From the NCBI GenBank assembly GCA_027451505.1, contig DAIDJD010000092.1, positions 17,588 through 81,587 of the forward strand: a DNA stretch of 64,000 nt, written 5' to 3'. Under the pieces are notes generated by a model that did no database searches, was not told the DNA's origin, and saw nothing but the letters and a program-made list of their open reading frames with translations. Below, piece after piece: positions 4,868 to 57,656 of this stretch. Both the position numbers and the translations under genes were made by a program. The stretch's first letter is position 1. Every line of letters starts with the position of its first letter. This stretch comes from a candidate division FCPU426 bacterium (GTDB taxonomy: Bacteria; Oederibacteriota; JAJYGY01; DAIDJD01).

Positions 4868-5980
4868 ATGACCCAAACCATCACCTCCATCGTCCCTGTG
4901 CCCCCCGCTTCGGCATCCCTTGGGGCCGAAGCGGGACTGCCCGTGTTGGGGCAGTCCCCGGGCATCAAGCGCGTGCTGAACCTGGCCCAAAAGGTGGCCC
5001 CCACGGACAGCCCCGTGCTCATCACCGGCGAGACCGGCACGGGCAAGGAATTGATCGCCCGGATCATCCACGCGGCCTCCCGACGGGCCAGGGGACCGTT
5101 CGTGGCGGTCAACGCCGGGGCCATCCCTGAGAATCTGCAGGAGAGCGAACTCTTCGGCCACCACAAGGGCGCCTTCACCGGGGCCGTGGCGGACCGCCGC
5201 GGCCTCTTCGAGGAGGCCGATGGCGGCACGTTGTTCCTCGACGAAATCGGCGACGCCAGCCCTGGGCTGCAGGTGAGGCTCCTGCGGGTCCTTCAGAACG
5301 GCAGCATCCGTCGTGTGGGTGAGAGCGTGGAGAGGCCGGTGGACGTTCGCTTGGTCGCCGCGACCAACCGGGTCCTGGAGCGCATGGCCGAACGAGGGGA
5401 GTTTAGGGAGGACCTGTTTTTCCGGCTCAACGTCGTGCACCTGCATCTGCCGCCGCTTCGGGAGCGGGGCGAGGACTTGGACCTCCTCCTGCGGGCCAAT
5501 CTGGCGCGGTTCGCCGAACGCCTGCGCAAGGAGGTGCGGGGATTCACCGCGGCGGCCTGGGACGCCCTGCGCGCCTACTTCTACCCCGGCAACATCCGCG
5601 AATTGGAGAACATCGTCCACCACGCCGTTCTCATGGCCGAGGGTCCCGAGGTGGAACTGTCCGACCTGCCGCCATACCTTAAGGCGAGGCTGGCCCTGCC
5701 CGCTCCGGAGCCGGGTCCCTGGAGGGAGGTCGCGCCTTTGGAGGTGCCCCGGGAGGCCTGGGGCAGGCCGGGTTCGCGTCCGGCCGCCTCCGAGTCCGCG
5801 TACGTGGCGCCCCACGTGGATCTGGGGGACGGCTTCCTGAGCATCTCGGACATGGAAAAGCAGCTCATCTCCGCCACCCTGGGAAGGCTCAAAGGGAACC
5901 AGAGCGTGGCCGCCCGGAAGCTGGGTGTGAGCCGTTCCACGCTGTGGCGCAAGATGAAGGAATATGGACTCCAGGCCTGA
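4868..5980 (+). CDS. sigma-54-dependent transcriptional activator (bacterial enhancer-binding protein) lacking an N-terminal sensory/receiver domain (PspF/HrpS-like architecture)
   Basis: AAA+ sigma-54 interaction domain with GETGTGKE Walker A, ESELFGHHKGAFTGA (GAFTGA loop), C-terminal Fis-type HTH QSVAARKLGVSRSTLWRKMKEYG; only about 40 aa precede the AAA+ core. Confidence 0.85.
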   Translation: MTQTITSIVPVPPASASLGAEAGLPVLGQSPGIKRVLNLAQKVAPTDSPVLITGETGTGKELIARIIHAASRRARGPFVAVNAGAIPENLQESELFGHHKGAFTGAVADRRGLFEEADGGTLFLDEIGDASPGLQVRLLRVLQNGSIRRVGESVERPVDVRLVAATNRVLERMAERGEFREDLFFRLNVVHLHLPPLRERGEDLDLLLRANLARFAERLRKEVRGFTAAAWDALRAYFYPGNIRELENIVHHAVLMAEGPEVELSDLPPYLKARLALPAPEPGPWREVAPLEVPREAWGRPGSRPAASESAYVAPHVDLGDGFLSISDMEKQLISATLGRLKGNQSVAARKLGVSRSTLWRKMKEYGLQA

Positions 5981-7644: not shown

Positions 7645-7695
7645 GGGTTCAAGCGCGGCGATGGATGGTGCGCAGGGGTTCAAGGGGTTCTTGAA
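7645..7695 (+). promoter_or_regulatory. candidate enhancer (UAS): direct repeat GGGTTCAAG x2, and inverted repeat TTCAAG-gggtt-CTTGAA at 7679-7695
   Basis: repeats read directly; centred about 125 bp upstream of the sigma-54-type promoter at 7813-7828. Confidence 0.3.
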
Positions 7696-7812
7696 ATCCC
7701 GGGGGCGCATATCTTTTCGTTTTTAAACACTTCATTGCGGTTGTTTGATTTTAGATCCATCTTTGCTTCGAAATGAAATTAACAAAAATACATATAACCT
7801 TTTAAATATAAA

Positions 7813-7828
7813 CGGCACGGTCCTTGCG
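7813..7828 (+). promoter_or_regulatory. candidate sigma-54 (-24/-12) promoter CGGCACG-gtcc-TTGCG upstream of dnaK
   Basis: GG and GC dinucleotides separated by exactly 10 nt, with extended match to TGGCACG-N4-TTGCW; about 50 nt upstream of the dnaK start; preceded by an AT-rich tract. Confidence 0.4.
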
Positions 7829-7880
7829 TGATATCCAGGCATACCAGTTCCATTAAGGATTCGAAAGCGAGGCGACATTC

Positions 7881-9800
7881 ATGGGAAAAATCATCGGCAT
7901 TGATCTGGGGACCACCAATTCCTGCGTGGCCATCATGGAAGGCGGGGAACCCAAGGTCATCAACAATTCCGAAGGCAATAGGACCACTCCTTCGGTGGTG
8001 GGTTTCGCCAAGGACGGTTCCCGGCTGGTGGGCCAGGCCGCCAAGAGGCAGGCCGTCACCAATCCCGAGAATACCGTGTTCTCGGCCAAACGGTTCATCG
8101 GTCGGCGCTTCAACGAGGTCCAGGCCGAGGCCAAGCGCATGCCTTTCAAGGTGGTCGCCGCCGACAACGGGGACGCCGCCATCGAGATCAAGGACAAGCG
8201 CTACGCCCCCCCTGAGATCTCGGCCATGGTGCTGCAGAAGCTGAAGGCCGACGCCGAGGCCTACCTCGGGGAGCCCGTGACCCAGGCCGTGATCACCGTG
8301 CCGGCCTACTTCAACGACAGCCAGCGCCAGGCCACCAAGGACGCCGGAAAGATCGCCGGCCTCGAGGTCCTGCGCATCATCAACGAGCCCACCGCGGCGT
8401 CCCTGGCCTACGGCTTGGACAAGAAGGGCAAGAACGAAAAGATCGCGGTCTACGACCTGGGCGGGGGCACCTTCGACGTCTCCATCCTGGAGATCGGGGA
8501 TGGCGTCTTCGAGGTGCGCGCCACCAACGGGGACACGCACCTGGGCGGCGACGACTACGACGAGGTCGTGCTCGAGTGGCTGGCCTCCGAGTTCCAGAAG
8601 GCCGAGGGCATCGATCTGCGCAAGGACCGCATGGCCCTGCAACGCCTGAAGGAGGCCTCGGAAAAGGCCAAGATCGAGCTCTCCAGCGCCGCCTCCACGG
8701 ACATCAACTTGCCGTTCATCACCGCCGACGCCACCGGGCCCAAGCACCTCAACGTGAGCCTGAGCAGGGCCAAGCTGGAGCAGTTGGTCGCGGGGCTGAC
8801 CGACCGCACCAAGGGCCCCTGCCAGCAGGCCCTCAAGGACGCCGGCCTTTCGGCCTCGGAGATCGACGAGGTGGTGCTGGTGGGCGGCATGACGCGCATG
8901 CCCAGCGTGGTGCAATACGTCAAGGAGCTCTTCGGCAAGCAGCCCCACCAGGGGGTGAACCCCGACGAAGTGGTGGCCGTGGGCGCCGCCATCCAGGCCG
9001 GCGTGCTCAAGGGCGAGGTCAAGGACGTGCTGCTGCTGGACGTCACCCCGTTGAGCCTGGGCATCGAAACCGAGGGTCGGGTGTTCACGAAACTGATCGA
9101 GCGCAACACCACGGTGCCGACCCGCAAGAGCCAGGTCTTCAGCACGGCCAGCGATAGCCAGCCCTCGGTGGAGGTGCATGTGCTGCAGGGCGAGCGCCCC
9201 ATGGCCTCGGACAACAAGACCATAGGACGCTTCCACCTCGACGGGATCCCGCCCGCGCCCCGGGGCGTACCCCAGATCGAGGTGACCTTCGACATCGACG
9301 CCAACGGCATCCTGGCGGTGAGCGCCAAGGACCTGGGCACGGGCAAGGAGCAGAAGATCACCATCACCGCCAGCTCCGGGCTCGCCAAAGACGAGGTGGA
9401 GCGCCTCGTCCAGGAGGCCAAGGCGCACGAGGCGGAGGACAAGAAGCGCCGTGAGGCGGCCGAGGTCCGCAACCACGCCGAGAGTCTGGCCCATTCCGTC
9501 GAGAAGACGCTCAAGGACCTCGGCGACAAGGTTCCCGAGGATAAGCGCAAGGACCTGGAGGCCCAGGCCGCCGCGCTGCGCGAGGAGCTCAAGAACGAGT
9601 CCGACGCGGAGGCGCTCAAGCGCAAGGCCGACGCGTTGGCGGAGGCCATGGCGGCGGTCTCCGAGGAGTTGTACAAGAACGCCAAGCCCGAAGCCGCTCC
9701 CGGCGGCCCGGATGGCGGGCCGGCCCAAGCCGGCGCCGCGGCCGGGGCCAAGACCGTCGACGCGGATTTCGAGGTCGTGGACGAGAAGAAAAAGGACTGA
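7881..9800 (+). CDS. dnaK: molecular chaperone DnaK (Hsp70)
   Basis: [25 protein letters not shown], full Hsp70 ATPase and substrate-binding domains; RBS GAGG upstream. Confidence 0.97.
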
Positions 9801-32111: not shown

Positions 32112-32158
32112 TTGACTACCATTCATGTGTATGGTATTATACCCATACACCTGAATGG
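32112..32158 (+). promoter_or_regulatory. recA promoter (TTGACT-N17-TATTAT) with overlapping 40-bp inverted repeat CCATTCATGTGTATGG-N8-CCATACACCTGAATGG (candidate SOS/repressor operator)
   Basis: hexamers at 32112-32117 and 32135-32140; 16-bp arms with one mismatch at 32119-32134 and 32143-32158; core palindrome GGTATtATACC over the -10. Confidence 0.45.
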
Positions 32159-32242
32159 TGACGGTTCGGCCCGCCCTGACGTGATGACATCCAGGGTGCC
32201 GGTGCATGCCGAGGGAACCCCAGCCCTGTCCGGAGGATGGTG

Positions 32243-33433
32243 ATGTCCGCCAACAACGAAAAGCAGCGCGCGCTTGAGATGGCACTGGCCGAAATCGAGA
32301 AGCAGTTCGGCAAGGGTTCCATCATGAAGCTTTCCGACGCCCCGGCCATCGACGTGGAGGCCATCCCCACCGGGGCCCTCAGCCTGGACATGGCCCTGGG
32401 GGTCGGGGGCATGCCCCGCGGCCGCATCGTCGAGATCTACGGACCGGAGTCCAGCGGCAAGACCACCCTGACCCTCAGCATCGTGGCCCAGGCCCAGAAG
32501 CTGGGCGGAATAGCGGCCTTCGTCGACGCCGAGCACGCCATGGACCCGGACTACGCCCGCAAGTTGGGCGTCAACATCGACGAGCTCCTGGTCAGCCAGC
32601 CCGAAAGCGGCGAGCAGGCCCTGCAGATCGTCGAGACCCTGGTGCGCTCCTCGGCCATCGACATCATCGTCGTGGATTCGGTGGCGGCCCTCGTGCCCAA
32701 GGCCGAGATCGACGGGGAGATGGGCGAGAGCCTGCCGGGGTTGCAGGCCCGGCTCATGAGCCAAGCCCTGCGCAAGCTCACCGCGCTGGTGGCCAAGAGC
32801 CGCACCTGCGTCGTCTTCATCAACCAGTTGCGCGAGAAGATCGGGGTCATGTTCGGGAGCCCCGAAACCACGCCCGGGGGCAAGGCCCTCAAGTTCTACA
32901 GCTCCGTGCGCCTGGACATACGCCGCATCGAGACCATCAAGAACGGGCAAGATGCGGTGGGCAACCGGGTGCGCGTCAAGACCGTCAAGAACAAGTGCGC
33001 CCCCCCCTTCCGGGAAGCTCTCTTCGACATCCTCTTCGGCGAGGGCATCAGCCGCGAGGGCACGGTGTTGGACATGGCCGCGGACCTGAACGTGGTCGAA
33101 AAGGCGGGTTCCTGGTTCGCCTACGAGGGCAACCGCATCGGCCAGGGCCGCGACCAGGTGCGCGCCTTCCTCAAGGACAACCCGGCGCTTTGCGACGCCA
33201 TCGACAAGAAGGTTCGAGAGGAGATGGCCCGGCTCAACAAGGTCAAAGCTGAGGAGGCGGCGGCCCGCAGCCAGGCCAACGCCAGCCGCTACGCGGAGTT
33301 CCCCACCCCGGCGCAGATCGCCTCGGGCAAGAGCGTGGTGGCCGAGTCCGGGACATCGGCCAAGGCCCCGGTTCCTGCGGCTCCGGCCAAGGCTCCCGTG
33401 GTCCCCAAGCCCGCGGCCGCCGAGAAGAAATAA
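32243..33433 (+). CDS. recA: recombinase RecA (with about 45-aa Ala/Pro/Lys-rich C-terminal tail)
   Basis: ...[24 protein letters not shown], Walker [10 protein letters not shown]; RBS GGAGG 6 nt upstream of ATG 32243. Confidence 0.95.
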
Positions 33434-56123: not shown

Positions 56124-57656
56124 ATGTCCTCGCTCTCGCCTAATCTTCAACTCCGGCAGCAGCAGCGGTTGGTGATGACGCCGCAGCTCAAGCAGGCGTT
56201 GAAGATCCTCCAGCTCAACACCGGCGAGCTGGGCGACCTCATCGAGAACGAACTGGCCGAAAACCCGATGCTGGAGGAGATCGGATCCGAGGCCGAAGCG
56301 GCCGAGGCGGGGCCGTCCTCGGAATCCGAATCCGGATCGGCGGGCGAGGCCGACGAGGCGTCCCGGGCGGCTTCGCCCGAATCCGAGGCCGCCCCCGAGG
56401 GGCCGGTGGAGGCCCCGGTCGAGGCCACCCGGGAACTGGAATTGGAGGGGCCCGGGGCCGAACTCGACGACTGGGCCCAGTACCTCGATGACGACGGCAC
56501 CGACTACAGTTTGGCCCGTTCCGAGCGCGAGGACGGCGAAGAAAAGCCCGGATTCGAGAGCTTCCTTTCCCGGGCCGAGACCCTCCAGGAACACCTGTTG
56601 CGGCAGCTCGAGTCCGAGGAACTCCCCCCCGAGCAGCGGAGACTGTGCGAGGAGATCATCGGTCGGGTCGACGAGCGGGGCTACCTTGACGAGGGCCTCG
56701 AGGGGATAGGGCGCGACTGCGGCGCCGGGGCGCCCGAGCTGTTCCATGCCTTGCGCCGTGTCCAGTCCCTGGACCCTCCGGGGGTCGCCGCCCGGGACCT
56801 GCGCGAGTGCCTCCTGCTCCAACTTGAGGCTCTGGGTGCCAAGGGCGGGGCCGCGTGGGACGCGTTGGAAAGCCATTACGACGATGTGGTGCACCGGCGC
56901 TGGGACCGCGTCGCCAAGGCGTTGCGGCTCGATCCCGGGGAGGCGGCCCGGGCCGAGGCCCTGGTCGCTTCCCTGGAGCCCATACCCGGCCGGCCCTACG
57001 GGGGGGCCCCCAACGCGGGGGTGCGGGTGGACGCGGTGGTGGAGAAGGATCCGCTCACCGGCTCCTACCGGGTGGTCATCGCCGATGGCGGCCTGCCCCG
57101 CCTCGGCTTCAACGCCTACTACCGCCGCCTGATCAAATCCGGCGGGGCCTCGTTGGCCGATCCCGAGACCCGGGCCTGGCTCAAGGACCGCCAGCAGTCC
57201 GCGTTGTGGCTCATGCGCGGCATCCAGCAGCGCCACCGCACGCTGCGTCGGGTTTTGGAGGAAATCGTCCAGGAACAGAAGGGCTTCCTGGACAGCGGCC
57301 CGGCGGCGTTCCGTCCGCTGACGCTCAAGGACATCGCCGGCCGCACGGGCCTGCACGAAAGCACCATCTCCAGGGTTTGCACCGGGAAGTACGTGCAGAC
57401 GCCCCGCGGGGTCTTCGAACTCAAGTTTTTTTTCGCCTCCTCCCTGCGCACGGACGACGGCGAGACCAGCTCCCGCGCGGTCAAGGACCGGCTGCGGGAG
57501 CTCATCGGCGAGGAGGACGAGGGCCAGGCGGTGCGGTCGGACCTGGAATTGGCCGGGATCCTGAGCCAAGAGGGTGTGCGCATCGCCCGGCGCACGGTGG
57601 CCAAATATCGCGAGGAGTTGCGCATCCCCCCGGCCCATTTGCGTCGCAAAAGCTGA
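56124..57656 (+). CDS. rpoN: RNA polymerase sigma-54 factor
   Basis: region I LQLRQQQRLVMTPQLKQALKILQL; C-terminal RpoN box ARRTVAKYRE. Confidence 0.95.
   Translation: MSSLSPNLQLRQQQRLVMTPQLKQALKILQLNTGELGDLIENELAENPMLEEIGSEAEAAEAGPSSESESGSAGEADEASRAASPESEAAPEGPVEAPVEATRELELEGPGAELDDWAQYLDDDGTDYSLARSEREDGEEKPGFESFLSRAETLQEHLLRQLESEELPPEQRRLCEEIIGRVDERGYLDEGLEGIGRDCGAGAPELFHALRRVQSLDPPGVAARDLRECLLLQLEALGAKGGAAWDALESHYDDVVHRRWDRVAKALRLDPGEAARAEALVASLEPIPGRPYGGAPNAGVRVDAVVEKDPLTGSYRVVIADGGLPRLGFNAYYRRLIKSGGASLADPETRAWLKDRQQSALWLMRGIQQRHRTLRRVLEEIVQEQKGFLDSGPAAFRPLTLKDIAGRTGLHESTISRVCTGKYVQTPRGVFELKFFFASSLRTDDGETSSRAVKDRLRELIGEEDEGQAVRSDLELAGILSQEGVRIARRTVAKYREELRIPPAHLRRKS

Follow-up and report, generated by a model that had tools for sequence, protein, structure and literature searches.

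A probable two-dyad repressor operator on the recA promoter of a candidate division FCPU426 bacterium

The window analysed here, a stretch of 64,000 nucleotides from a candidate division FCPU426 bacterium, has a GC content of about 70% and carries on its forward strand a recA gene (32243–33433) encoding a protein of 396 amino acids (Pfam RecA, E = 9e-138). Its start was placed at the ATG at 32243, before which stands a ribosome-binding site, GGAGG (32232–32236, forward strand), and a database protein of 100% identity begins likewise with MSANN. The closest RecA proteins among the matches listed, 73–92% identical, belong to metagenomic bacteria. The first match with a name is that of candidate division FCPU426 (83% identity over 82% of the query), followed at about 70% by Firmicutes-like bacteria, Melainabacteria and Acidobacteria; on these matches the window is assigned tentatively to an uncultivated lineage related to FCPU426. 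The C-terminus of the protein is a long, basic, Ala-, Lys- and Pro-rich tail (33233–33430, residues ~331–396), which comes after a conserved SQANASRY(A/S)EFP motif and is also present in relatives; E. coli RecA has a short acidic C-terminal tail. The order recA, AsmA/DUF748, CobA-like, IclR is found in most relatives, the window retaining recA and AsmA only, and in five relatives recQ is found upstream of recA, either one or two genes away.

Elsewhere the window encodes dnaK, groES/EL, dnaJ, HtrA, HU, transketolase, rpoN and PTS proteins, and the sole other recombination-related gene within it is cinA, 19 kb off. A good match to the sigma-54 -24/-12 promoter, cGGCACGgtccTTGCg, stands directly before dnaK-groES-groEL (dnaK ATG at 7881), with a sigma-32-like CTTGAAA...CATATCT farther upstream (regions 7814–7830 and 7690–7715); no CIRCE element was found before dnaK in the window, which also encodes a sigma-54 activator (4868–5980) and RpoN itself (56124–57656).

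The recA promoter has the form TTGACT-N17-TATTAT, as an earlier note on this DNA had claimed. The -35 hexamer TTGACT (32112–32117, forward strand), of which TTGAC is invariant in 7/7 recA upstream regions compared, is followed by a 17-nt spacer and by the -10 hexamer TATTAT (32135–32140), the two hexamers matching the consensus at 10 of 12 positions. The -10 is TG-extended (TGgTATTAT, 32132–32140, forward strand, with the TG one base 5′ of the hexamer), its counterparts in relatives read TGGTATAAA, TGGTATATA, TAGTAT or TATAAC, and from its end to the recA ATG there are 102 nt. Sigma-70 promoter geometry predicts a transcription start 6–9 nt past the -10, at 32146–32149 on the forward strand.

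An inverted repeat (32118–32159) overlies this promoter. The 16-nt arms with one mismatch that had been reported for it are correct, and one more pair extends them to 17 nt: the left arm (32118–32134) is ACCATTCATGTGTATGG and the right arm (32143–32159) CCATACACCTGAATGGT, and in the repeat search they proved 94% complementary with 8 nt, TATTATAC, between them. The exact palindromic core GGTAT-t-ATACC, to which attention had also been drawn, is present at 32133–32143 but is peculiar to the window and unconserved in relatives, since the inter-arm spacer is here 2 bp longer than in the closest relatives, where it reads TATAAA or TATATA.

The repeat is AT-rich in a window of about 70% GC, and no other inverted repeat in the 64 kb combines arms of 16 nt or more with a loop of up to 12 nt and no more than one mismatch. 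An equally good one appeared in none of 20 Markov-1 simulations of the window and in none of 20,000 shuffles of the local 64-nt AT-rich segment; chance origin of the inverted repeat is excluded. Folded as single-stranded DNA it reaches -14.3 kcal/mol (z = -5.7). No further copy of the half-site or of the core was found in the 64-kb window at up to 3 mismatches.

The repeat had been described as one 40-bp unit with the -10 at its centre. Its arms are however palindromic in themselves, the spacing between them varies and in one relative they are separated, and the unit looks instead like two 16-bp dyads. The first, P1 (CCATTCATGTGTATGG, 32119–32134), is a quasi-palindrome with 6/8 internal pairs that fills the -35/-10 spacer; the second, P2 (CCATACACCTGAATGG, 32143–32158), is a quasi-palindrome that starts 2 bp past the -10 and lies over the predicted start. 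For a random 16-mer of the local composition, 6/7 outer pairs are expected with p ~0.002. Across the relatives described below, 5–7 of the 8 internal pairs are formed in 14/14 sites, giving the consensus CCATWCA-N2-TGWATGG (CCAT-N8-ATGG); the logo of the 28 half-sites reads C, C, A, T, W, C, A with 1.2–2.0 bits per position, the eighth position being uninformative. Some of the conservation of the inner half-sites may be due to the promoter itself, given their overlap with the extended -10.

The note had proposed a comparison with the recA upstream regions of related genomes. This was carried out for the window and six independent relatives, seven lineages in all, whose RecA proteins are 72–89% identical to that of the window, after merging of duplicate loci (L001 with L002, L003 and L091; L005 with L006; L008 with L009). 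The motif is conserved before recA in every one of the six relatives retrieved. Read in the order -35, left arm, spacer/-10 and right arm, the window has TTGACT, ACCATTCATGTGTATGG, TATTATAC and CCATACACCTGAATGGT; L001 has TTGACG, ACCATTCATGTGTATGG, TATAAA and CCATACACATGAATGGT; L004 has TTGACAA, ACCATTCAGATGTATGG, TATATA and CCATACATAGTTACGGT; L005 has TTGACAA, ACCATTCATCTGTATGG, TATATA and CCATACAGATTTACGGT; L008 has TTGACAG, ACCGTAAATCTGTATGG, TATATA and CCATACAGATTTACGGT; and L007 has TTGACAAAA, ACCATACACTTGTATAG, TATATGTTTA and CCATACAAGTTTATGGT. The seventh lineage, L104, has TTGACG, no left arm but 17 unrelated nt, TATAA and, as right arm, CCATACATATGAATGG. P1 thus stands at the matching position in L001, L004, L005, L007 and L008/L009, and P2 directly after the -10 in 7/7 lineages, starting 0–2 bp past it in most loci and 4 bp past it in L007.

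In the six compact promoters, those with both dyads in place, the inter-dyad spacer is 6, 8 or 10 bp and the centre-to-centre distance 22, 24 or 26 bp. The L104 promoter has a P2 that is a perfect match to the consensus (L104:9800–9815) and the sole dyad there, with a P1-like 16-mer, CCATACACACGTATAG, 80 bp upstream (96 bp from P2, centre to centre). Two complete dyads, each palindromic and able to occur apart, point to a double operator, and the two 16-mers are shown by these comparisons to behave as separable units. Directly upstream of the L104 recA promoter and between the two 16-mers lies an ORF whose translation reads as a RelE/ParE-like toxin (L104:9226–9700); it directly follows a small RH3-domain gene, and the promoter spacer there is unrelated sequence.

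The most diverged locus is informative about constraint. The genome of L007 has 38% GC vs 70% in the window, and four-fold silent sites in its recA are 25% identical to those of the window, which is saturation; its half-sites nevertheless read CCATACA, CTATACA, CCATACA and CCATAAA, at least three of the four being within one change of CCATACA. The genes 5′ of the element vary (a hypothetical protein, recQ, an NAD-binding protein, DUF4405, a toxin-antitoxin pair), from which it follows that the element belongs to recA. It was found in none of the 79 unrelated recA loci among the matches listed in a metagenome RecA scan, which contained one close relative (L009). A search of species-representative genomes with the promoter-plus-operator pattern gave 15 matches, only one of them genuine (MAG SMAG_U12676, DATHOE01, equal to L091); with a single pattern-bearing genome, and the window's own genome outside that collection, the lineage appears almost unrepresented among reference genomes. 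In viral contigs the double site had no match, and the 30 matches to the inner palindrome were all in low-GC (29–51%) contigs and all without the flanking arm sequence. Conservation of the bases across saturated silent sites in L007, together with their absence from the 79 unrelated recA loci, provides strong evidence, on sequence grounds, for purifying selection on specific bases of the element.

Downstream of the dyads, the recA leader presents conserved features of its own. A stem GUUCGGC...GCCGAG (32164–32214, forward strand; 13 predicted pairs, one of them compensatory) is predicted in the 5′-UTR around an inner helix and a near-invariant motif, GATGACATCC (32183–32192), whose version in L104, GGATGACATCC, is a palindrome. 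An Rfam search returned sub-threshold miRNA-hairpin noise only (≤18.7 bits vs cut-offs of 61–135). The conserved stem and motif could be an RNA element of the leader or else a second site on the DNA. In L007, a terminator-like hairpin, GGCTGTTTGGAAACAGCC and then CCGCTTTTTG, lies in the leader between promoter and ATG (L007:2945–2972) and may, judged by its sequence, be a transcription attenuator. A second, post-transcriptional layer of recA control is therefore possible.

The closest parallel to the arrangement of P1 is the recA promoter of E. coli, which in the K-12 record reads TTGATA-CTGTATGAGCATACAG-TATAAT and has a 16-bp LexA box in the exact position of P1. The E. coli SOS box and P1 are alike in being 16-bp dyads whose outer tetranucleotides are conserved and whose interior is AT-rich, and each exactly fills the recA spacer between a TTGAYA-like -35 and a TATAAT-like -10; compared by eye, the E. 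coli box and the 16-mer have C1, T4, A5 and A7 plus their mirror positions in common. The tetranucleotides differ, being CCAT/ATGG here and CTGT/ACAG in E. coli; unlike E. coli recA, the window promoter adds a second dyad over the start site, and the host is related to FCPU426 and not to the Proteobacteria. Two adjacent dyads associated with tight control recall the tandem LexA sites of Verrucomicrobia lexA and of the E. coli colicin, recN and lexA promoters, and the P1/P2 junction makes a third palindrome, TGTATGG-N6-CCATACA, as in the tandem-site model (PMC4951493); the motif sequence and spacing differ from those of tandem LexA sites, and compensatory changes are present here. Tandem LexA sites are documented at tightly controlled promoters (PMC4951493; PMC11332147), and precedents for multiple SOS boxes have been summarized (PMC11332147).

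We consider that the element is probably a repressor operator. The earlier proposal that a repressor bound at the repeat would occlude RNA polymerase is supported by the position of P1 in the -35/-10 spacer and of P2 over the predicted start: a dimeric repressor on either dyad would exclude the polymerase, P1 blocking the spacer and -10 and P2 the start site, and the two sites together would give tight repression. The binder would most likely be the SOS repressor of the lineage, a LexA with a specificity unlike all described motifs, and DNA damage would lift repression through RecA-stimulated self-cleavage of LexA. Taken as a whole, a two-dyad operator on the recA promoter that is most likely bound by a lineage LexA of new specificity is a reading to which we give somewhat better than even chances. 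Protein binding, repression, the identity of the binder as LexA and induction by damage are in each case what we infer, and the assignment to LexA and the SOS response draws on prior expectation. With a dyad that overlaps the recA promoter and is conserved at the orthologous promoters of the clade (seven lineages), the element may plausibly be the lineage's own SOS box.

The distances between the dyads bear on how such a repressor might bind. Centres 22, 24 and 26 bp apart leave one helix face, and this loss of helical phase argues against rigid cooperative binding; the variable spacing suggests that two dimers would bind largely independently.

If a LexA does bind here, its site has been re-lettered. 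The statement that the repeat matches no known LexA box was borne out by a motif scan of the seven lineage promoters, in which no conserved GAAC-N4-GTTC, CTGT-N8-ACAG, GTTC-N7-GTTC, TGTTC-N4-GAACA or TTAC-N3-GTAA was found, nor a conserved cyanobacterial, Geobacter, Xanthomonas, Leptospira or Bacteroidetes LexA motif. To our knowledge CCAT-N8-ATGG is not among the described LexA motifs, and a text search of the literature for CCATACA/TGTATGG half-site operators and for FCPU426 SOS biology returned nothing relevant. Seventeen LexA motifs had been reported by 2021, and they vary widely between phyla (PMC8565304), with turnover of the motif via tandem sites (PMC8565304; PMC4951493). The recA genes of outgroups present a different picture, an exact GAAC-N4-GTTC standing within 300 nt upstream in 55/72 loci vs 0/67 control segments (the 72 being the unrelated outgroup loci, L010–L088, with enough upstream sequence among the metagenome matches listed). 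This proportion gives, at the level of sequence motifs, a base rate for LexA control of recA in the nearest outgroups. Since GAAC-N4-GTTC is common in these outgroups and no known box is found in the lineage, the usual recA control site seems to have been replaced by the 16-mer.

That the operator is real but its binder is not a canonical LexA is an alternative which we regard as unlikely, though it deserves serious attention. The binder would then be another damage-responsive or recA-specific regulator, with a regulon that is maybe small or confined to recA; candidates could include a non-canonical S24 repressor as in Bacteroidetes, a UmuDAb-like protein, a DdrO/IrrE-like pair or an unrelated HTH protein. 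The failure of the 16-mer to fit any described LexA box (PMC8565304) is in keeping with this alternative, and control of damage regulons by proteins other than LexA has precedents (PMC8565304; PMC11332147; PMC13148647). The operators of UmuDAb/DdrR in Acinetobacter and of the LexA-like repressors of Bacteroidetes likewise fall outside all LexA motifs: that of UmuDAb is unusually large and has been modelled as two adjacent sites (PMC11332147), and the non-canonical Bacteroidetes regulators bind GGA-N5-TCC or CTAA-N5-TTAG (PMC8565304). Both systems, however, control translesion polymerase genes, and their operators have no sequence resemblance to the 16-mer.

In Deinococcus, recA has a palindromic RDRM operator that is bound by a non-LexA repressor, DdrO. 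A palindromic site at recA is common to that system and to the lineage, but the RDRM consensus (TTMYGYNNTDNNRCRKAA, 17–18 bp) is not conserved at the lineage recA promoters, its one match there being in L008 and having 2 mismatches. For LexA regulons a pair of operators at recA is unusual, which also counts against LexA as the binder.

Further points in favour of a non-LexA binder come from the lineage DNA, of which about 110 kb non-redundant (about 150 kb with duplicate loci) was scanned. No lexA was found in the window or the lineage loci, tblastn with E. coli and B. subtilis LexA (approximate query sequences) giving nothing better than E = 0.2, and scans that allowed three spacer lengths and as many as 4 mismatches found no further 16-mer beyond recA in this DNA, which holds no other classical SOS gene. 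Besides recA, the DNA scanned contains recQ and cinA only, and because it includes no classical SOS gene but recA, the missing second site and the missing lexA are uninformative rather than negative. Against a binder other than LexA stand the LexA-type box that overwhelmingly precedes recA in the nearest outgroups (55/72), and the 16-bp 4-N8-4 geometry and promoter-spacer placement, which mirror a genuine LexA site. The IclR protein is a poor candidate, since its gene, three downstream of recA in several relatives, has no motif before it and is absent from the window.

A further feature of the pair is its mirror symmetry. The mirror relation of the two sites extends to their centres, which are not palindromic. 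By hand count over the six compact promoters, P2 agrees with the reverse complement of P1 at 15, 16, 11, 13, 16 and 14 of 16 positions, and with P1 read directly at 12, 12, 11, 11, 10 and 12 of 16; on these counts the mirror symmetry of the pair exceeds what a palindromic consensus present twice would require. Across the same promoters 89% of arm cells are complementary and 5/17 positions have changed on both sides, one arm position showing CG, GC, AU and UA pairs and never a mismatch. Covariation scores 0.196, against a shuffle mean of 0.076 (0/500 shuffles reach the score) and no more than 0.067 in slid controls. In L008/L009 three outer bases are altered on both arms and perfect 17-nt arms are retained. 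In L004 and L005 a new right arm is combined with the old left arm, leaving 3–5 uncompensated outer-arm mismatches.

As read from the alignment, such compensatory changes go against a plain protein-operator model of half-site recognition, which predicts none. A hairpin or cruciform under selection would account for the mirror symmetry, and so would template-switch correction between close inverted copies. Templated quasi-palindrome mutation between close inverted repeats is a known process that can create covariation without selection. In the operator model, the symmetry would be attributed to such templated mutation between the close inverted copies, or to symmetric cooperative binding.

Improbable in our estimate, but directly suggested by these changes, is that the mirrored repeat acts as a nucleic-acid structure, instead of or besides a protein site. 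As DNA, a cruciform or hairpin with the -10 in its loop would couple recA transcription to supercoiling or single-strandedness; as RNA, a hairpin in read-through transcripts from the upstream gene, which is co-directional with recA in 7/7 loci, would serve as an insulator or processing site. Besides that shared strand, the complementarity kept by compensatory changes, with its score above 500/500 shuffles, speaks for structure, as do the perfect arms of L008/L009 after three compensated changes, the single-strand fold at z = -5.7 and a loop that varies between 6, 8 and 10 nt while the arms stay complementary. The arms are nonetheless not adjacent in all members. L104 has its perfect P2 without a nearby left arm, which makes a short-loop hairpin impossible there, and the uncompensated mismatches of L004 and L005 also speak against structure. 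With the predicted start inside the right arm the hairpin could not form part of the recA mRNA, the repeat has no T-tract after it, and templated mutation can yield the covariation without selection. Structure also leaves unexplained the self-palindromy of the arms and the fixed CCAT.CA across saturated divergence. Since loss of complementarity is tolerated in L104, L004 and L005, the arms are palindromic and specific bases are conserved, structure is not considered the primary function.

Accidental overlap of a strong promoter with a quasi-palindrome that is neutral, or left over from a mobile or repetitive element, is suggested by AT-rich sequence in a 70% GC genome but is very improbable for an element which is single-copy in the window, is fixed in position relative to the recA -35/-10 whatever the upstream gene, is conserved although silent sites are saturated, and is absent from the 79 unrelated recA loci among the matches listed and, as a double site, from viral contigs. 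Other identities were considered and rejected: a MerR-type spacer operator, the promoter spacer being 17–18 bp and not 19–20; DnaA, ARG and TyrR boxes, resemblances to which are not conserved across relatives; and a terminator of the upstream gene, there being no T-tract and the upstream genes differing.

A bolder interpretation, which we put forward tentatively and think unlikely, is that the element is more than a re-lettered LexA box. In that case either a damage regulator independent of LexA would use it as operator, the phylum having lost the canonical circuit or never possessed it, or the promoter itself would switch between duplex and hairpin or cruciform and gate recA by supercoiling or single-strandedness, with the 16-mers as a protein layer on top.

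LexA is a textbook case of a transcription factor whose target changes in evolution, and a change of motif is what specialists would expect. Should the 16-mer CCATWCA-N2-TGWATGG prove to be the lineage's SOS box, the LexA series would gain a new motif, and that motif would offer a handle on the damage regulon of a phylum represented by metagenomes only, in the form of a weight matrix and a probe for the promoter. With its mirrored layout, compensatory changes and variable spacing, the pair of sites is a clean natural case for the origin of tandem operators and bears also on how much of operator symmetry comes from templated mutation as opposed to selection. If the binder is not LexA, the promoter would represent another independent reinvention of damage-responsive recA control. 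The combination of a candidate-phylum motif with unusual compensatory symmetry is a concrete and testable lead.
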